This document shows, in pieces, positions 6,704 to 60,227 of a stretch of DNA of 64,000 bases (its first letter is position 1; each line of letters starts with the position of its first letter). Both the position numbers and the translations under genes were made by a program. The notes below the pieces were generated by a model. That model worked only from the letters and a program-made list of their open reading frames with translations, searched no databases and had not been told where the DNA came from. This DNA comes from Escherichia coli (GTDB lineage: Bacteria; Pseudomonadota; Gammaproteobacteria; Enterobacterales; Enterobacteriaceae): NCBI RefSeq assembly GCF_016026235.1, contig NZ_CP065613.1. The stretch is one strand, 5' to 3'.

Positions 6704-6825
6704 GCAGGTGAATGCAACGTCAAGCGATGGGCGTTGCGCTCCATATTGTCTTACTTCCTTTTTTGAATTACTGCATAGCACAATTGATTCGTACGACGCC
6801 GACTTTGATGAGTCGGCTTTTTTTT
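6704..6825 (+). ncRNA. fnrS: FnrS small regulatory RNA
   Basis: Sequence GCAGGTGAATGCAACGTCAAGCGATGGGCG… ending in hairpin GCCGACTTTGATGAGTCGGC plus T8 matches my memory of FnrS; lies between zntB and dbpA as in K-12. Confidence 0.8.
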
Positions 6826-9574: not shown

Positions 9575-10810
9575 CTACGATAACCGCGCATTCAACATGG
9601 CTATCTGTTCGTCGTTCATGTCATCAATCCACATACCGTAAATTTCATACACCATTTGCGCAGTTTCATGCCCCATCTGGCTGGCTATAAATGCCGGGTT
9701 CGCTCCTGCCGTCAACAGCCAGCAGGCAAAAGTATGTCGCGTATGGTACGGATTACGGCGGCGAATACCAGCACGTTTTACTGCTGCATTCCATCTCGCA
9801 CCCAAACTGCTTACCGAGTAATAAGGTTTCTGTTTTCCGTTACACATCCTGGGCATGAAAACAAAATGCAGTTTTTGCTTTTCGGTTCTGCCGTACTCCC
9901 GATGATAAAAAGTGATTTCGCTTTTGCGATGATGCCCGGTCAGTTTGTATTGCTCCTTCAGTGCTTCAAGAGCTGGCTGTAGTAATGTTACCGTCCGGAT
10001 CCCGGCATTTGTTTTTGGGGGACCGAACATATCAAGTATCGTCAGGTTTCTTCTGACATTCACAATTCCCTTCTCGAAATCCACATCCTCCCACGCCAGA
10101 GCTGCCAGTTCCCCGTGACGAAGCCCGGAGTAAACGGCAAATTTCCACAAGTTTTGGCTCTGTCCTTTTTCACTTTCCATTAATGCATTGAATTCTGTTT
10201 TAGATAACGGGTCAGGCTTTATTCTGTTTCGCTGTAATTTTTTTACTCCTTCAAATGGTTTGGTTGATATAAATCCCGACTGATACGCAAAACGTAACAG
10301 CGAACAGAGCAGGGCGATATAGTTATCAACTGTGCGCACGGTTCTTCCTTTTTTGTTGGATCTTGGATTATCCAGGTAAAGCGTTTCTCCATGCAGCAGT
10401 TCATTCCGGTAGTTTAAGATATCGCTATAACGAATATATGATATCGGGGTACTTTCACAAATTATTATTCTGAGTGTTTTTAATTGTGATTTCGTTTTCT
10501 TCATTGTGTTTGTTGTTAACTCTGTCTCTTTAATTTTTGTCCAGATATCACAAAGCTCCCCGAACGTTTTTATGACTCTCGTTGTCACCATTTTTGCCCC
10601 AGTGCTGGACTGGGGAAAACGTCTTAAATACTCAAATTCACCGGAGTTTATTTCATGAACTATCAGCGCTCTTAAATTTCCGGCCTTTTTAATATTACTG
10701 TTTGTAATCTCCCAGCCTTTTAATGTTTCCCGACATCGTTTTCCTCGAAACATGAACCAGATGCGAATGTTTCTACCTCTAATCTCGACACCTGTTGGTA
10801 ATTTAGACAT
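9575..10810 (-). CDS. Phage integrase (tyrosine recombinase), IntR-like
   Basis: 411 aa; C-terminal catalytic region (…HTRHTFACWLLTAGANPAFIASQMGHE…YGMW) typical of lambda-family integrases; adjacent to the att site. Confidence 0.85.
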   Translation of the reverse strand: MSKLPTGVEIRGRNIRIWFMFRGKRCRETLKGWEITNSNIKKAGNLRALIVHEINSGEFEYLRRFPQSSTGAKMVTTRVIKTFGELCDIWTKIKETELTTNTMKKTKSQLKTLRIIICESTPISYIRYSDILNYRNELLHGETLYLDNPRSNKKGRTVRTVDNYIALLCSLLRFAYQSGFISTKPFEGVKKLQRNRIKPDPLSKTEFNALMESEKGQSQNLWKFAVYSGLRHGELAALAWEDVDFEKGIVNVRRNLTILDMFGPPKTNAGIRTVTLLQPALEALKEQYKLTGHHRKSEITFYHREYGRTEKQKLHFVFMPRMCNGKQKPYYSVSSLGARWNAAVKRAGIRRRNPYHTRHTFACWLLTAGANPAFIASQMGHETAQMVYEIYGMWIDDMNDEQIAMLNARLS

Positions 10811-11027: not shown

Positions 11028-11126
11028 CGCATCACCTCTGGCAGGCGCCAATGTTAGACTGAAATTGACGCCTGATGTTGATTATTAATAATCAGCTATG
11101 AAGTTCTAATCTGGATATAATGAAAT

Positions 11127-11315
11127 TCACGAGGACTGAAGTTTCTCGCAATTAAAATTTATCAGTTTTACTTTCTGCTCTCTGGAAACGCCTGCTTCTT
11201 TTTCCCCTGAGAGCATTTTTTCGCATTCTGATTTCGTTAGTTTTGTCTTTGAGTATCTTGTCCAGCTGGCAGGAGAACCACCTTCCTTTTCAATAGTGGC
11301 TGTAATTTTATACAT
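11127..11315 (-). CDS. Hypothetical phage protein (62 aa)
   Basis: ATG preceded by GGAGGTG; no recognisable motif. Confidence 0.4.
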   Translation of the reverse strand: MYKITATIEKEGGSPASWTRYSKTKLTKSECEKMLSGEKEAGVSREQKVKLINFNCEKLQSS

Positions 11316-11354
11316 GAACACCTCCATTAATATTTTCCCAAAATGCACTTGGTT

Positions 11355-12452
11355 TTACACCGGAATATTCTCATCGTATCCTGCTTGTTGCGTTTCGTTT
11401 TGTGTTTGTGGATCCGGGAATGCATATTCAACGCCTTCCAGTTCAATCCATAGTGCATTACGACCAGCTTTGATTGTCGGCCAGTCCATACCTTTGATTC
11501 TTTCCCATGAGCGGGAGGTGAATGTTTTTTCCAGCAAATCAGCTTTTGCGCGTTTGGCGTCGTTACTGGTGCCCCCATGGTGCTTGTTGAGCAACTCGAT
11601 AATTTCATCAAGTGCGATTTCTTTTGCACGCTTTTCTTTTAGCCATGTCGGTGTACCGTCGTTGGCAAATAATTCACTGTTATCCCGTGAGGTATCGATG
11701 CCGAGGTGTTCACCTCCCAGGTTAAGAAACTCGATATGAGGAAGAAAGTTTTTAAATGTTGGGTTTGAAAATACCTGTCCATCAATACGGGTGGAGCGAT
11801 CTTTTAGTATTCTGGCGGTGCGCCACACCTGACCGGTTTCTATGTTCATTTGCTTCTCCATCTGGATCAGGATGGAGGGTTCATAACCGGTTTCTGTTTC
11901 TGCTTTCATTTTTATACCGGTTTTTGCCAACTGGCGTTTGCCATCATCACCTTCGAAAAAGTCATACTCATATCCTGCACGCCCGCACATAATAATGTGC
12001 GCCTGACTGTTAACAAATCGATCGGTAAAGCGTCGCCACTCCTGTTTGAGCCACGCCCAGTCTGAAAATTCCAGTCCTCGTTTACGGTTTCGGCGTCTGG
12101 CATACTCGTCGCATAATCCGGTCCAGAAGTGACTGATGGAGTCGATGATCATTACGGAACCGCTGCTTTCCGCTTCATTAATGGCTTCAAGCAGATCAAC
12201 AAACGAGCGGGTTTTTGCCGTAAATAATTCGATATTTTCCGCATCAAAGCGGGGTTTAACCCAGTCAGAGCCTGTTTCTGTGTCCAGAAACATTACCGGG
12301 CGGTTACCAGCTTCAATTCCCCGTTGCCGCATAAGCATTACCAGACCAATAGCCAGTTCGCTTGCTGTGTAGGTTTTGCCGTCGCCAGCAAACCCCATAA
12401 TTCCTGCTTTTAGATAGGCCTGTGTGTTTATTGCTCGTTGAAAAAGCGCCAT
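11355..12452 (-). CDS. RecA-fold P-loop ATPase, Sak4-like
   Basis: 365 aa; Walker A GFAGDGKTYTA and Walker-B-like VMIIDSISHFW; strong SD; sits in the recombination-module position next to int/xis. Confidence 0.55.
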   Translation of the reverse strand: MALFQRAINTQAYLKAGIMGFAGDGKTYTASELAIGLVMLMRQRGIEAGNRPVMFLDTETGSDWVKPRFDAENIELFTAKTRSFVDLLEAINEAESSGSVMIIDSISHFWTGLCDEYARRRNRKRGLEFSDWAWLKQEWRRFTDRFVNSQAHIIMCGRAGYEYDFFEGDDGKRQLAKTGIKMKAETETGYEPSILIQMEKQMNIETGQVWRTARILKDRSTRIDGQVFSNPTFKNFLPHIEFLNLGGEHLGIDTSRDNSELFANDGTPTWLKEKRAKEIALDEIIELLNKHHGGTSNDAKRAKADLLEKTFTSRSWERIKGMDWPTIKAGRNALWIELEGVEYAFPDPQTQNETQQAGYDENIPV

Positions 12453-12457
12453 AGATT

Positions 12458-12757
12458 TTAGTCCTCCAAATCAATATCAACCTGGTGGTGGGCAATGGTT
12501 TCAGCCATGTACCGGATGTGTTCTGCCATGCGCTCCTGAAACTCAACATCATCATCAAATGCGTGGCTGATTGCCTGTTTATTGGCACCGTGGCGTTGCA
12601 AATGGTCGATGCAGAGCGATTCAAACAGGTGCTGAGGCAGACCTTTTTCCAGGTCGTCCGCCAGTTCCGTTTCTTTTTCTTCACGAACGATCTGCTGGTA
12701 GTGGCGAGCCCATGCCATTTCTTCAATACGATCAAAAATCGGGTAAGCGCTCATCAC
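12458..12757 (-). CDS. Hypothetical acidic phage protein (99 aa)
   Basis: ORF only; translationally packed between the large early gene and the ATPase gene. Confidence 0.4.
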
Positions 12758-13106
12758 TGGTCACTCCAAAATTTTCAAGCTTGTTGGCAATCATCATTGC
12801 GATGTCAGGGATTGCAGGCGCATAGGCTATGCACGCAGGATTCGCACATAAACCGTAAACCGCCGCAATCAACACCTGTTTTTTCCAGTTGAGTTCATCT
12901 TCGCCAGTTTCATTATTGCTATCATTATGCTGATCGCTGCCAGCGTTCTCCGGTAACAAATCATCAGCTTTTCCGTTTTCTTCGGCTCTTCTTCCTGTGC
13001 TTCATCTGGTTTTTTTTCGTCAAAAGTTTCCTGATAAGTTGCGTCTCCCATCACCGCGCCACAGTCAGGGCAGTTATCCTCGCCAGTCTGATTGCAGGGT
13101 GTTCCC
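12732..13106 (-). pseudogene. C-terminal remnant of the large early-left gene, cut off by the IS10-like insertion and carrying a further frame break
   Basis: Reading from the target duplication at 13106 continues the 14401..15975 frame (…[16 protein letters not shown]…); switches to the -1 frame at a T4/A4 run near 12969..12979 and ends at 12732. Confidence 0.5.
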
Positions 13107-14400
13107 CTGAGGGATCCCCAGAAAATTTAGTAAACCATTATCATATTGGTATACCGTTGCTGTAGAACTTTCAGCCCTGCGTCAAGTGACAGTGTGTTTA
13201 GTATGAGTGGAGAATGTCGAATCACATTCTCCGCCAGTTTTAATAACGAGATGACTCGCCTGTGCTTCACTGTATTTGCCTGATATTTATGATGTATCCC
13301 TTTGTTTTCCAGGCTGAAACCGCTTAACCACATAATGATACTGGCTAATGTTGCGATCAGACTCAATACCGTGACCCGCCCGGATGAATGACTGGCACCA
13401 AACCGTAGTCCAAATCCCCAGCGAGGATTTTTTTCATCCCTGAAATTTTGCTCAATTTGCATTCTACGGCTGTATAATTTCATTACCTGTTTTGGCGAGA
13501 ACTCAGTACTGTTTGTGAAAATAAACCATGGTGATTTCCCGGCAGTACGAGCTTTAGCCGTCACCGATGGTCTGGTTGCTCTTTCCTTCGAGCGTTTAAA
13601 TCTACGACCTTTAGGCTTACTTTTATAAAGATAAAAATGCCCTTCATGTTGTGCATTTTTATCTCGACCCAGCAGGCCTTCACCTAAATAAATTGCTGTC
13701 GTTGATGCTTTTGTGCCTGAGTCCGACACCTTTTCCCAGCCATTACCAACATTGTAATAATGATTGCCCAGTACCCGGCAAATATAGGTCCAGCCACGGG
13801 AGCGGAGCTGTTGGAACCATCGCCCCTGAAAACCGGCATCTGTAATAACAATGACATCAGTCCCGGGGGAAAAGCACTCAGCAAGCGATTCCAGAAAACG
13901 CTCATGTACATCTGCATTCGCTGTCTGTGATGATGGAACGACACAACTCATCAACGGTAAAGAACGCCCGTCACATGCCAGGCTTGCCCGCAAAAGCTGA
14001 AAACGAGAGGCATGATAAGCACTCCAGTCAATGAGTATCACAACACGAGACATTCCCCGCGTAATCTTTTGGGTAATTCGCTGAAAAATGGTGGAAACCT
14101 CATTTTGCAAATGTCGATTCCCCAACAGTCGATCCACCCGCTTTATTTTGTTTTTAACTGATGCCGTACCGGTTAAATGACGCCCGATACTGGTAAGTGT
14201 GAGGGAAGCGCCATTTATTACAGCATTAGTTGCGTCAATCAGTGATTTTTGACGGTAAAGATGCAAAGGGGCCAGTATGTTGTTAAGGAAATTTTGGCAT
14301 AATGAACGTGCAGGCATAGTGGTGATCTCCTTGAAATTGTTAGCACAATCAATTAGATCACATCTCACTATGCCTGTCTTGTTTTCTGGGGATTCCTCAG
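13107..14400. mobile_element. IS10-like insertion sequence (IS4 family), 1294 bp
   Basis: Ends CTGAGGGATCCCCAGAAAA / TTTTCTGGGGATTCCTCAG (about 22-bp imperfect inverted repeats, IS10-like CTGA termini); flanked by direct repeat GGGTGTTCCC at 13097..13106 and 14401..14410. Confidence 0.8.
13127..14317 (-). CDS. IS10-like transposase (DDE, IS4 family)
   Basis: Blocks resembling IS10 transposase as I recall it: KRVDRLLGNRHL, VILIDWS, ITDAGFQGRWF, YSRRMQIEQNFRDEK, QANTVKHRRV; ORF extends to 14368. Confidence 0.8.
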   Translation of the reverse strand: MPARSLCQNFLNNILAPLHLYRQKSLIDATNAVINGASLTLTSIGRHLTGTASVKNKIKRVDRLLGNRHLQNEVSTIFQRITQKITRGMSRVVILIDWSAYHASRFQLLRASLACDGRSLPLMSCVVPSSQTANADVHERFLESLAECFSPGTDVIVITDAGFQGRWFQQLRSRGWTYICRVLGNHYYNVGNGWEKVSDSGTKASTTAIYLGEGLLGRDKNAQHEGHFYLYKSKPKGRRFKRSKERATRPSVTAKARTAGKSPWFIFTNSTEFSPKQVMKLYSRRMQIEQNFRDEKNPRWGFGLRFGASHSSGRVTVLSLIATLASIIMWLSGFSLENKGIHHKYQANTVKHRRVISLLKLAENVIRHSPLILNTLSLDAGLKVLQQRYTNMIMVY

Positions 14401-15975
14401 GGGTGTTCCCTCCTCCGGTTCGCTGTTCTGGTGCTGTTTATCTTCAGTCTGTCGCACTTCATTTTCCGTTTTTTTGACTTCATTTGAGGAGATATGATGA
14501 CCGGGAATCCATTTCGGATCATTCGGGTCGCTAATCCCTTCAACAAATTCTCCGCGAGAGGCAGCCAGTAATTTGTCTGCATCGACAGGATTTTTGGGCG
14601 GAATGTTTTTCCGGGCTTCATGGAGTTCTGCCCGCAGTTCCTGATATTTCTCATCAACAGCATTTACCTGTGACTGAGCATCCAGCGGCTGCGTGTCCTG
14701 ATGATGTTCAGTTGCATCCGGTTCCACTGTTTCAGCCGTTGCCTGTTCATCTGCCATTGCGCAAGATGGTTGCGGTTTTTCTTCATCATCCTGTTTTCCT
14801 TCTTCTGTTACTCGCTGCGGCATCGGGGCAGAGGAGCGACCGCAGGCAATATCCACGATTTCCGGATCAGGGTTGGCATGATCGGTTTCAGTCAGTACCT
14901 TGTTCAGATATTCAGTGACGTGCGCGGGGATGACCTCGATACCAATCGGTGCTTCTTTCACTGACGCAACCACGATGGCGCGGGAATAATCCATCCCGCC
15001 AGGCATGGTGATGAATTTGTCGCGGAAAACAGAAAAGGGCGGTTTATTTTCAGTGATAATTTCCTCAATGCGTTTAGCGTGTGCCGGATGAAGATTATAA
15101 ATATCCACGTCCATTGAACGGGCCAGTACGCCAGTGGCTACGTCGCGCGCCAGCGACGTCAGATCGTGGACGAAACCTTCGCCGCGATCGGTGAGGTTCC
15201 CGCCGCCAGCATTAGCACCGGAAGCCGTGCGAGTGATACGCGAAACACGATTTCCTTTCATCCACTCTTTTGTCAGCAGACCGCGATCGGTGTAGTTGGC
15301 ATCCAGATATGCTTCGAAAAAAGCAGTCATCAGTCCCAGATTTGAATTGCCAGGATTAGGGAAAACTTTGTCAGTATCACGCACGAGTTTGTGGAGGTCG
15401 CGAATCTCCAGCGGGTCGAGCAGACTGGTTTTATGCGAAACAGCCAGAGCAGTAACAGCCGGTAGTTCTTCATCCCGAGCAATGTGTAATGCCTGGAGTT
15501 CGTCGCGTGAAACGTGCGTTACCGGTTTTTCGCTGCCGTGTTGCGCAAGCCAACGAATGGGCAGTTCCTGACCGGAAACTGGCAGGAGCATGTTCTCCTC
15601 AATTTCTGTCATGTCTTCGCCGTTGACGTTGGTATTGTCAGTGCTGGCTGGTTTGTCCTGAACAGAGGGAGAAGATGCGATAAATACCATTGTGATGCCA
15701 TCTTCCCCGCCTTTTTCGTAACGGTTGCAGAATTCCGTATCAAACACGCCTTCTGGTGGGAGGTCATCAACAACGGGCAAATTGACGCGAACAGGTTTTT
15801 TAAAGTCATCTTCATCGTAGCCAGCATCGTCAATCGCAACAGCACCACGGGAGATGGCAATGGATAATTTTTTCGCTTCAGCCCAGTAAAAACCGCCTTT
15901 AATACCGAGGCGTTTTCTTACTTTGTCATTTTTTGCTTCGTAATACAGTGGGTAAACTTGTTTATCGGTGCTCAT
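14401..15975 (-). CDS. Large acidic early-left phage protein, 3' end truncated by the IS insertion
   Basis: 535-aa ORF whose last 10 codons plus stop (14368..14400) are IS-derived; original product about 650 aa; no P-loop or other motif recognised. Confidence 0.5.
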
Positions 15976-15998: not shown

Positions 15999-16295
15999 TC
16001 AGATTGCATAAAAGAAACGAACTGATGATGCGATATGAGAGAGTTCTTTCAGTCGTTGATAACTGATACCGTATTTCTTGTCAGCCTCTTCAATGCGAGC
16101 TGTGAGTAATGCAATTTCTTTAATGGCACATACACAACAATCAAATGTTCCCAGAACGTAACCGTCATCAATAATTACCGTGACGTTTTCTTTTTGGGAA
16201 ATCTGAATGAAACTATGTAATGTATTCCCACATTTAAATTCGGCGAGAGAATCGTTAATAACATCAAGTTCAATTTCACATTCAATAATGCTCAT
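15999..16295 (-). CDS. Hypothetical phage protein (98 aa)
   Basis: ATG preceded by AGGAAACA; ORF-track version begins upstream at 16343. Confidence 0.4.
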   Translation of the reverse strand: MSIIECEIELDVINDSLAEFKCGNTLHSFIQISQKENVTVIIDDGYVLGTFDCCVCAIKEIALLTARIEEADKKYGISYQRLKELSHIASSVRFFYAI

Positions 16296-16369
16296 TGCTG
16301 TTTCCTTTTTTAAGGTTGAGTGAATCCCTGCCATTGCTGGCATAAATTCAGTTTCGAATATTCAGTTAA

Positions 16370-16667: not shown

Positions 16668-17213
16668 TTATTTTAAGGAAAGCAACTGCTCTACGGTCAT
16701 GTTTTTAATTGCGCCCCGGTTTACAAGAGTCCAGCCCTGTTTTTCCAGATAAAACCGGAAAGTCTCCAGGGTACAGACCAGTGCGCCATCAGGAACGGTT
16801 TCGGTGAATTCGACATTGCCGAATTTGTCGAAGTGAACAACCAGAGTGCGACCATCACCCGGAATCATCTTGTCAGCAGGTGGGGTGTTATTCTGGCGCA
16901 GTTCGGCCTCCATGCGGTCGAACTCAGCAATGTAGGCTTCCTTGAATGTGGCGGCTTTTTTGCCCGTGAAGCCCATCACCAGGAAAACGAAGCCGTTTTT
17001 GGTGATTTGGTAGGCGTTATAAGAATTGCCGCGGTGTTCGAATTTAACCCGCGAAAAGTTGCTGGTTAAAAATAGTTCAGAACATTCGAGGGATTCTATT
17101 TTTTGAACAACATGGTGATGCTGCTTGCCAAAAAACTCAGCAATCGAAATAGAAGTAGTGACGGCGCGACCATTTTCGATGGTTACGTCAGGGTGAGAAA
17201 GGGTAGTAGCCAT
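16668..17213 (-). CDS. Rha-family phage regulatory protein / antirepressor-like
   Basis: MATTLSHPDVTIENGRAVTTSISIAEFFGKQHHHVVQKIESL… resembles the Rha N-terminal domain; GAGGA 7 nt upstream of this Met; the ORF extension to 17507 contains a terminator. Confidence 0.55.
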   Translation of the reverse strand: MATTLSHPDVTIENGRAVTTSISIAEFFGKQHHHVVQKIESLECSELFLTSNFSRVKFEHRGNSYNAYQITKNGFVFLVMGFTGKKAATFKEAYIAEFDRMEAELRQNNTPPADKMIPGDGRTLVVHFDKFGNVEFTETVPDGALVCTLETFRFYLEKQGWTLVNRGAIKNMTVEQLLSLK

Positions 17214-17378
17214 AATGACATCCTCAAGTGATAAGTTAATTAACTCACCAGCAGAGGTGCTAATCTCATGGGTGGTGAGACGCACAGGGTTAGCACTACC
17301 GGTCACTCGAGAACCCGGCCAGCCTTGCGGCTGCCCCGCACGCCTCACCATAATTTGAATGTGGCTGTGCATTACGCA

Positions 17379-17402
17379 TAAAAAAACCGCTTCAGCGCGG
17401 TT
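17379..17402 (-). terminator. Rho-independent terminator (minus strand)
   Basis: Minus-strand read AACCGCGCTGAAGCGGTTTTTTT; lies inside the upstream extension of the Rha ORF. Confidence 0.45.
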
Positions 17403-17529
17403 ATGCGCTCGAGTAACTTTCGGGGTGCTAATCCCGGCACCCGTTTTATGAGGTGCAGGTGCACTATAATTCCACCCGTTCTGGTTTTCAATAGCTACAT
17501 TCAACATTTTCTCTTTCCTTTCATCACCG

Positions 17530-25921: not shown

Positions 25922-26258
25922 AAGGAAACAAAACAGAAACAGCAATTGCCGTTACCTGTTGTTACCATGGCAAGTAAACGTATCTCAGGCGAGCGCATTG
26001 CGCCGTTCTGACGCAGATAAACTAGCCTGGATAGATGGTGCTGGCAATAAAAAATAGCGTTTTCTTATCGGTGTCGGTAAGATTGCTGCGGGTGCTTGAG
26101 GCTGTCTGCCTCGGGCATGTCACTGTAAGGCAGACAGAGAAAAGCCCCAGTTAACATTACGCGTCCTGCAAGACGCTTAACATTAATCTGAGGCCCAATC
26201 TATGTCTCACAAATGTAGGTTAGCCTCTTACGTGCCGAAAGGCAAGGAGAAGCAGGCT

Positions 26259-26414
26259 ATGAAGCAGCAAAAGGCGATGTTAATCGCCCTGATCGTCATC
26301 TGTTTAACCGTCATTGTGACGGCACTGGTAACGAGGAAAGACCTCTGCGAGGTACGAATCCGAACCGGCCAGACGGAGGTCGCTGTCTTCGTAGACTACG
26401 AATCTAGAGAGTAA
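26259..26414 (+). CDS. Hok/Gef-family type I toxin
   Basis: 51 aa MKQQKAMLIALIVICLTVIVTALVTRKDLCEVRIRTGQTEVAVFVDYESRE; an in-frame upstream extension (26202) resembles a mok-like leader. Confidence 0.75.
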   Translation: MKQQKAMLIALIVICLTVIVTALVTRKDLCEVRIRTGQTEVAVFVDYESRE

Positions 26415-28417: not shown

Positions 28418-28689
28418 CTCAATCTGTTATCCGGGGCTATATTCCTCACGCGCCAGCAAAATCTGGCGTCGGGATTGGCGTCCCGGATGTTTACGGAGCG
28501 ATATGAGACGCGCCCGCGTCTTTTTTCATATCGTTTGCACAGTCTCATTCGCGATTTATGGCGGGCTGTGTGGGGGAGCCGAAAGGCTCGCCGGTTTCCG
28601 TACCCGGTTACGCCAACCCTGCACAGTTCGCCACCAGTTCGATTGGCGTCGTCGGTGGCGATAATTTCCAAATGTACGGAGTTATCGTT

Positions 28690-29455: not shown

Positions 29456-29532
29456 GGCCCTTTAGCTCAGTTGGTCAGAGCGAGCGACTCATAATCGCCA
29501 GGTCGCTGGTTCAAGTCCAGCAAGGGCCACCA
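29456..29532 (+). tRNA. tRNA with anticodon CAU (Ile2/Met-like, ileZ-type)
   Basis: Cloverleaf by eye: acceptor GGCCCTT/AAGGGCC, anticodon loop CTCATAA, T-arm GCTGGTTCAAGTCCAGC, 3' CCA encoded. Confidence 0.8.
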
Positions 29533-29533
29533 A

Positions 29534-29610
29534 CCACCACTAGCTCATCCGGATAGAGCATCAACCTTCTAAGTTGACGGTGCGAGGTTCGAGTCCTCGG
29601 TGGTGGGCCA
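29534..29610 (+). tRNA. tRNA-Arg (anticodon UCU) with atypical 5' C-start acceptor stem
   Basis: Acceptor CCACCAC/GTGGTGG, anticodon loop CTTCTAA, T-arm CGAGGTTCGAGTCCTCG, CCA encoded. Confidence 0.65.
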
Positions 29611-29612
29611 GC

Positions 29613-29688
<76 letters not shown>

Positions 29689-29691
29689 TAT

Positions 29692-29766
<75 letters not shown>

Positions 29767-59862: not shown

Positions 59863-60089
59863 TGAATAAATCCTTTAGTTATTTTATTTGCCTTTTATCC
59901 CCATTTCGGGGAGTGAAAACATCCTAAAGGAGAAGTTCAGTTAGCCGATAAATATCATTTGTTACGCCTTAAGTAAAACCTTAATCAAAAAATTCCTCTG
60001 AAATGATAATAAGTCTGGTGAATGTATCGAAGATAATACATACAAAATAAAAATTATACTTTTAATTTTCTATACGTTATTCTGCGCGG

Positions 60090-60198
60090 GTTATATGCCT
60101 TTATTGTCACAGATTTTATTTTCTGTTGGGCCATTGCATTGCCACTGATTTTCCAACATATAAAAAGACAAGCCCGAACAGTCGTCTGGGCTTTTTTT
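60090..60198 (+). ncRNA. micC: MicC small regulatory RNA
   Basis: GTTATATGCCTTTATTGTCACAGATTTTATTTTCTGTTGGGCC… with terminal hairpin and T-run matches my memory of MicC; lies between ompN and ydbK. Confidence 0.8.
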
Positions 60199-60227
60199 TA
60201 GAATTGGATAATCCTTATCCAGAGCAT

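Follow-up and report, generated by a model that had tools for sequence, protein, structure and literature searches.

In a stretch of 64,000 nucleotides (nt) of Escherichia coli DNA (NCBI RefSeq assembly GCF_016026235.1, contig NZ_CP065613.1; the whole stretch is called the window here), a Rac-like lambdoid prophage carries three minus-strand genes for a RecE-related protein (recE-N), a lambda-type Gam protein and a 365-residue Sak4-like ATPase of the RecA fold (table 1). Together they are probably a recombination module of the Gam plus Sak4-like annealase type, assembled as a mosaic in a prophage integrated at ttcA. The dbpA and ttcA genes followed by intR and xisR mark the Rac attachment site, so that the window from position 9575 onward is assigned to a Rac-like lambdoid prophage. 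The module genes lie between the immunity region (approx. 18.8–19.6 kb) and xis/int and, therefore, in the leftward early operon. The stop codon of the large open reading frame (ORF) and the gam start overlap by 26 nt, and 5 nt separate the gam stop from the ATPase start. Both the layout (with the large ORF beginning at 15975) and the tight packing had been given correctly in a preliminary description of this DNA made from the letters alone. The alternative recombination module that it proposed for the slot of the Rac recE and recT genes is supported by synteny with loci L003 and L011. The nearest complete genomes are those of enteroinvasive E. coli.

Table 1. Features of the recombination module and its immediate surroundings in the window.
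Feature	Position	Strand	Basis and remarks
DUF1187 small ORF	11127–11348	−	NCBIfam NF007283, E 2.8e-40; RefSeq annotation in L001–L004
RalA small RNA (sRNA) gene, antitoxin of the RalR/RalA type I pair	11131–11309	+	Rfam RF02694, 207 bits (gathering score 170), full length
Exchanged cassette, 1,120 bp: ATPase gene with flanks of 3 bp (upstream) and 19 bp (downstream)	11336–12455	−	blastn of the window against L002
Long Sak4-like ATPase, 365 amino acids (aa), intact	11355–12452	−	AAA_24; RecA/Rad51 fold
gam, intact, for a RecBCD inhibitor of lambda type and GamS size	12458–12757	−	Pfam PF06064; PDB 2uuz, 5mbv; phrog_259
recE-N, 3' part	12732–13106	−	Aligned at the DNA level with the intact genes of L001 and L004 and with L002; ORF list
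ISEc60 (IS4 family), 1,294 bp	13107–14400	−	Inverted repeats; transposase ORF 13127–14368
recE-N, 5' part, codons 1 to approx. 525, cut by the insertion sequence	14401–15975	−	NCBIfam NF007259 exoVIII; phrog_607, E 4.5e-225

The ATPase is made of a RecA/Rad51 core (residues 1 to approx. 225), a helical C-terminal domain specific to the family (approx. 226–345) and an acidic disordered tail of about the last 20 residues, ending with YDENIPV. The Walker A motif GFAGDGKT corresponds to residues 20–27 and a Walker B-like sequence, VMIIDSIS, to residues 100–107. Among 66 relatives, down to 36% identity, G20, G25, K26 and E59 never vary and the conservation of D104 is 90% or more, so that the two motifs from which a RecA-fold ATPase had been proposed are confirmed. 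The protein matches Pfam AAA_24 (E 1e-13), to which Sak4 belongs, falls in phrog_1366 (E 1e-79) and shows a weaker match to the 'Sak4-like' phrog_124 (E 1e-8). An AlphaFold model obtained from 66 sequences (pLDDT 94) finds its best structural matches exclusively among recombinases and Rad51 paralogues, including the solved Sak4 of phage 80alpha (8rc5), aligned over 179 of 219 residues. The family and PHROG matches and the fold uphold the earlier label 'Sak4-like'. Note that the structural matches span only approximately 180–200 residues: the C-terminal domain (226–345), helical in the model, has no counterpart in any recombinase and no known fold. It is conserved among the at least 500 clusters (50% identity) that match the ATPase with E<1e-30; in almost all of them the match covers residues 1–340. 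Identity is 70–75% for homologues in Pseudomonas, Achromobacter and Roseateles, 100% for a Shigella boydii protein and approximately 30% for short AAA_24 proteins of phages, which align with residues 4–200. No match was found to PDB sequences. AAA_24 was the only Pfam domain in 27 relatives of 450–1,100 aa that were scanned for an informative fused domain, and their extensions thus give no clue.

The main evidence on the role of the ATPase comes from the genes beside it, which were inspected in 79 IMG/VR loci (43 with close and 36 with distant relatives). An anti-RecBCD gene is found directly upstream of the ATPase gene in 42 of the 43 close loci, being a lambda-type gam (phrog_259) in 38 and a gam-like gene (phrog_1050) in 4, where the loci are not independent, many being near-identical Cronobacter prophages. 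At least six different flanking arrangements around the ATPase gene are found among the IMG/VR loci. Only the gam and single-strand DNA-binding protein (SSB) calls were used for the distant, high-GC loci, in which the simple ORF caller gave spurious ORFs; a canonical SSB gene occupies position +1 or +2 with respect to the ATPase gene in 7 of the 36, and four of the +1 neighbours matched no PHROG. In Achromobacter prophages the SSB gene directly follows and abuts the ATPase gene, and gam is missing there. Because of these associations with anti-RecBCD and SSB genes, the ATPase is read as the annealing protein of the module. An SSB encoded next to its gene is also known for HK620 Sak4, which depends on the C-terminal tip of that SSB (PMC5928155). 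A blastp search with HkaK found no match among the proteins encoded next to the ATPase in the IMG/VR loci. In the inducible phage phiES15 the gene order is kil-gam-ATPase-hyp-dam-xis-int, and both phiES15 and the Cronobacter prophages carry the ATPase without RecE-N.

Several observations weigh against this assignment. Helicases, KaiC and FlaH share the RecA core and come within a few Z units of the recombinases in the structural comparison; the ATPase matches no NCBIfam model; PHROGs files phrog_1366 under 'unknown function', and the long family is without a characterised member. Neither an SSB nor an exonuclease gene was found in the module, and no SSB homologue turned up when the entire window was compared with E. 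coli SSB, the non-homologous HK620 SSB-2 type not having been searched for there. The module is present in decaying prophages struck by various insertion sequence (IS) elements, so that its current function in the strain is unproven. Furthermore, Sak4 has been defined as a core-only protein of less than 290 aa (PMC2896510), and the protein in the window, with 365 aa and an extra domain, does not conform to it. Comparison with HK620 Sak4 gave an hhalign probability of 41%, in the Walker A–B region only, and no significant BLASTP match. With that definition and such marginal similarity, the ATPase is a Sak4 relative carrying an extra domain rather than a typical member.

In an alternative reading, the ATPase is a RecA-superfamily NTPase with some other role in DNA metabolism and came to lie beside gam by operon mosaicism only. 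It might then act in replication or restart, work as a helicase-like motor or serve as a regulator. The annotation of some phage AAA_24 relatives as 'replicative DNA helicase', the unmatched C-terminal domain and the non-committal PHROGs label are in line with such a role. However, the structural ranking is led by recombinases and Rad51 paralogues, with the solved Sak4 among them; the gene takes the precise place of bet and exo; and its neighbours are anti-RecBCD genes of two families and, in distant relatives, SSB genes, whereas in phiES15 the replication genes O and P lie across the immunity region and not beside the ATPase gene. This alternative is, thus, considered unlikely.

If the ATPase is the annealing protein of a Gam plus annealase module, the following path can be proposed. 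Gam, by homology, would plug the DNA-entry site of RecBCD and so shield the linear ends of the phage DNA. The ATPase may then bind single-stranded DNA (ssDNA) in an ATP-dependent manner and anneal complementary strands, as HK620 Sak4 does. As the module is devoid of a phage nuclease and of a phage SSB, the predicted substrates would be single strands that host nucleases expose and host SSB covers, which would make the putative annealase reliant on host resection as well as on host SSB. The conserved C-terminal domain and the acidic tail, which resembles the tip of SSB, would be candidate elements for binding protein partners. RecE-N, where intact, would contribute the N-terminal domain of RecE with a short alternative tail; in the window its gene is a pseudogene.

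The acidic tail was inspected across the family. An acidic-(I/V)-P motif recurs in the disordered acidic tails of the relatives (P0001–P0270; encoded at 11355–11380 in the window). Some of the tips (DDDIPF, NDDIPF, DDDVPF, GGIPF) are indistinguishable from that of SSB, and the protein in the window ends with YDENIPV. Of 255 members, 55 have an acidic-[IVLM]-P sequence within their final 15 residues, to be compared with 9.5 ± 3 in shuffled tails, and 14 have an aromatic tip, with 1 expected, but the 255 sequences are related and these figures overstate their independence. The motif suggests an interaction with SSB-binding pockets, and the tail could anchor the protein to SSB-coated ssDNA or to host proteins that partner SSB (RecJ, RecQ and ExoI, for instance). 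By extension, members of the long Sak4-like family might be self-contained RecA-fold recombinases, with the C-terminal domain and the acidic tail performing in cis the task for which HK620 Sak4 relies, in trans, on the tip of the phage SSB. Such a proposal is speculative and rather unlikely; if true, it would explain how a module made of Gam and the ATPase manages with neither a phage SSB nor a phage exonuclease.

The boundaries of the ATPase cassette are defined by the comparison with the sister prophage of E. coli R1 (L002), where the gene order is recE-N, gam, bet, exo, ralR, DUF1187, xis, int. In blastn, homology between the window and L002 is confined to 11078–11335 (92%) and 12456–13098 (82%). 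It runs through the recE-N tail and gam, ends 2 nt beyond the gam stop codon and resumes 19 nt after the ATPase stop codon, within the last 28 nt of ralR. As the homology breaks exactly around the ATPase gene, the comparison identifies the exchanged segment as an ATPase-only cassette that has replaced bet, exo and most of ralR of the sister prophage. With phiES15, the window shares at the DNA level only the ATPase gene (77%) and not gam, so that the ATPase gene appears to move as a unit of its own.

The exchange left its mark on the toxin–antitoxin pair RalR/RalA. The RalA gene is full length, and the toxin gene is gone except for approximately 28 nt of its 3' end (11308–11335); thus, the pair is incomplete and RalA is an orphan type I antitoxin. 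The RalA gene is antisense to the DUF1187 ORF, the final gene before xis and int, which belongs to the conserved flank common to Rac-type relatives.

The preliminary description had left the 99-aa protein without a name. It matches the Gam profile PF06064 over its full length (E 9e-56, positions 1–97 of 98) and the lambda GamS of PDB entries 2uuz and 5mbv (E 1.6e-50, with approximately 80% identity over 97 residues, counted from the printed alignment), and no NCBIfam model matches it. The sequence comparisons identify it as lambda Gam. That it binds and inhibits RecBCD is predicted from the approximately 80% identity to the protein present in the RecBCD–Gam structure (5mbv).

The large gene, in turn, had been described as encoding an acidic protein of approximately 650 aa with no recognisable motif. 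The latter statement was wrong: the product matches the exodeoxyribonuclease VIII model NF007259 with an E value of 8e-295 over profile positions 1–523 of 877 (980 bits, under the curated cutoff of 1269), and in the intact 646-aa orthologue Pfam detects Exonuc_VIII (PF06630) alone. The intact protein, which is indeed acidic (pI 4.7), aligns with residues 40–585 of an 866-aa RecE and with residues 1–610 of a 1,048-aa RecE, and the shared N-terminal approximately 590 residues of RecE are 77–86% identical to the product of the large gene. Past the shared sequence '...SDETGE' full-length RecE proceeds into the nuclease domain, whereas this gene continues with an alternative tail of 55 residues that includes AAVYGLCANPA...MIANKLENFG. 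The nuclease domain of RecE corresponds to residues 564–866, and no function is known for the N-terminal domain except that it enhances linear–linear recombination (PMC11611040). The C-terminal PD-(D/E)XK nuclease domain (RecE 564–866; PF12684) was not found by NF007259, Pfam or alignment to RecE; PF12684 is present in the full-length relatives, unlike in the nuclease-less form. Comparison with PDB sequences gave no chain at E≤0.1. No recT is adjacent, the genes downstream of recE-N being gam and the ATPase gene, while RecT is present in L003 and L011. Thus, the earlier statement that the module lacks the RecE/RecT pair holds for RecT and for the nuclease domain of RecE, but not for the N-terminal domain of RecE, which the large gene encodes. 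Homology of the large protein to a characterised exonuclease, mentioned beforehand as what would indicate an ordinary Sak4-type module, is clear but limited to the non-catalytic part of RecE.

Intact 646-aa ORFs are found in dozens of Shigella and E. coli protein clusters, and the same 55-aa tail occurs in L002 (665 aa) and in the Shiga toxin (Stx) phages POCJ13 and 75/02 (682 aa), in each of which recE-N is followed by gam-bet-exo. For these reasons the nuclease-less recE-N is a genuine and widespread gene form in Shigella, E. coli and Stx phages, which RefSeq either labels 'exodeoxyribonuclease VIII' or flags as a truncated pseudogene ('missing C-terminus'). RecE-like proteins without a nuclease domain, of unknown role, are mentioned in a 2025 survey of lambdoid recombination modules (PMC12315714). 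Among the proteins P0339–P0390, the PF06630 domain is found with three alternative ends, namely the PF12684 nuclease (approx. 884 aa), a PF16473 DnaQ-like 3'–5' exonuclease (814 aa) or the 55-aa tail alone (646–671 aa). The RecE N-terminal domain behaves as an independent module. A zinc-ribbon-like CxxC-x7-CxxC motif is also present in RecE-N (encoded at approx. 13040–13100 on the minus strand of the window), reading CTACGQSDGDNCPDCG in L002 and CNACGQSGGDNCPDCG in full-length RecE; its first CxxC pair is degenerate in the lineage of the window.

In the window the gene carries two lesions. ISEc60, 100% identical to annotated ISEc60 copies and with a transposase recognised by the NCBIfam IS4 model (E 1e-107), is inserted in it and flanked by a 10-bp target duplication, GGGAACACCC, at 13097–13106 and 14401–14410, in agreement with the IS noticed initially. 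The second lesion is a 1-nt deletion in a run of A residues, with A4 at 12969–12972 where the intact relatives L001 and L004 have A5. The last 75 codons are, as a consequence, in another frame, where a 75-aa ORF (12732–12959) carries the conserved tail. Excision of the IS in silico restores only a 600-aa ORF, so that a protein of approximately 650 aa exists only in relatives (e.g. the 646-aa ORF of L001). recE-N in the window is, therefore, a pseudogene by ISEc60 insertion and 1-nt frameshift. Judging by ORF and protein lengths, the 600-aa frameshift allele without the IS is found in other isolates (L022 from IMG/VR; P0323 from Shigella dysenteriae, 600 aa), and for this reason the insertion may have come after the frameshift.

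Enteroinvasive strains with the module have it in prophages at three attachment sites, ttcA, yebY (L004) and a site adjacent to a DUF1175 gene. Sister copies in enteroinvasive E. coli are interrupted by IS911, IS600, ISSso6 or IS1A at four different points, also inside the ATPase gene. A specific targeting of the large gene by IS elements was considered and rejected on the basis of these different elements at different points, and the IS in the window is a case of ordinary decay. The recE-N/gam/ATPase module is present twice in the genome of E. coli VL40 (L017, 1609041–1617220). Within E. coli proper, few complete genomes (9 of 5,426) have gam together with the ATPase gene, a combination that is common in Shigella sequence sets.

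The two lesions of recE-N, the sister copies broken by IS elements and the scarcity among complete E. coli genomes would also fit an inert remnant, that is, a module of a decaying prophage in which no gene contributes any longer to the life of this strain. However, gam and the ATPase gene are full length, their translations are the same as in other strains (e.g. L001), and the family of the ATPase is strongly conserved. That all three genes are inert is distinctly improbable; this possibility concerns present activity and not the identity of the module, and is compatible with its being a Gam plus Sak4-like annealase module.

The preliminary description had also considered that the three genes could form one nucleic-acid-targeting defence or anti-defence system. 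Prophage early regions often contain defence genes, and Gam, as an inhibitor of a host nuclease, is an anti-defence protein in the broad sense. PADLOC, nevertheless, gave no match for the ATPase, Gam or RecE-N, the only match to PADLOC-DB 2.0 among the module proteins being a weak one (E 0.006) between the out-of-frame 75-aa ORF and a methyltransferase model. The large protein has no nuclease domain, and the genes are not inherited together: RecE-N is found with gam-bet-exo, the ATPase without RecE-N, and the ATPase with SSB in the absence of gam. The defence reading is not supported by these findings and is very improbable.

Among known systems, the closest to the ATPase are the Sak4 proteins of the AAA_24 family (phi31 of Lactococcus, Pseudomonas PA73, HkaL of E. 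coli HK620 and ORF016 of S. aureus 80alpha), with which it shares the RecA/Rad51 core, the Walker A and B motifs and the location of the gene in a phage recombination module beside an anti-RecBCD gene; in distant members of the family an SSB gene directly follows, as in HK620. Unlike Sak4, it has 365 aa, a conserved helical C-terminal domain of approximately 120 residues, an acidic tail and a PHROG of its own, and no phage SSB gene adjoins the ATPase gene in the enterobacterial loci. With lambda Red (gam-bet-exo), including the recE-N, gam, bet and exo arrays of POCJ13, 75/02 and E. coli R1, the module has in common the upstream recE-N (with the same tail) and gam as well as the DUF1187-xis-int flank, but a single ATPase gene takes the place of bet, exo and ralR, and neither a Rad52-type annealase nor a 5'–3' exonuclease is encoded. 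It occupies the same early-left slot at the Rac site (ttcA-intR-xisR) as the Rac RecE/RecT system, and differs from it in the absence of the RecE nuclease domain and of recT. The functions are those of the P22/HK620-type modules as described in the 2025 survey (PMC12315714), namely an anti-RecBCD protein and a strand-annealing protein without a phage nuclease, with Gam instead of Abc2 and a long RecA-fold protein instead of Erf. Within the functional classes of the survey, an anti-RecBCD protein plus an annealase without nuclease and SSB is the P22 type, and phiES15 is included in its panel (PMC12315714).

Other features of the prophage were noted in passing. On the 5' side of recE-N, in the position of racC, a 114-aa ORF (15999–16343, minus strand) belongs to phrog_2434, of unknown function; its RefSeq label varies between genomes, being either 'DNA breaking-rejoining protein' or 'hypothetical'. 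Rfam detects the isrK and C4 antisense RNA pair twice, at 17268–17456 (minus strand), within the 5' part of a 279-aa Rha/Ant-like ORF (16668–17507), and at 28437–28638 (plus strand), where it is accompanied by an a1/b1 target element. The two pairs look like c4-ant immunity cassettes of the P1/P7 type, doubled in one prophage. A sok antitoxin RNA of the hok/sok type (26090–26264) and a cluster of four tRNA genes (29456–29763), both on the plus strand, were also found in the prophage with Rfam. The stretch containing the prophage has chromosomal landmarks on either side in the host sRNA genes frnS (6704–6821) and MicC (60087–60207), both on the plus strand.

The module is, overall, an ordinary phage mosaic with one little-studied protein, the long Sak4-like ATPase, and it does not overturn current understanding, since mosaic recombination modules are well documented in lambdoid phages. 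For annotation, the 646-aa 'exodeoxyribonuclease VIII' of Shigella, E. coli and Stx phages needs to be corrected, being devoid of the nuclease domain, and the RefSeq 'missing C-terminus' flag conceals a genuine alternative gene form. The occurrence of the RecE N-terminal domain on a PD-(D/E)XK nuclease, on a DnaQ-like exonuclease or on neither offers a handle on its function. The ATPase represents a large and strongly conserved branch of the Sak4/AAA_24 proteins with an extra domain, as yet experimentally uncharacterised. Should the ATPase prove active, it would qualify as a compact candidate for exonuclease-free recombineering tools and would provide a contrast to the core-only Sak4 proteins on how RecA-fold annealases handle SSB.

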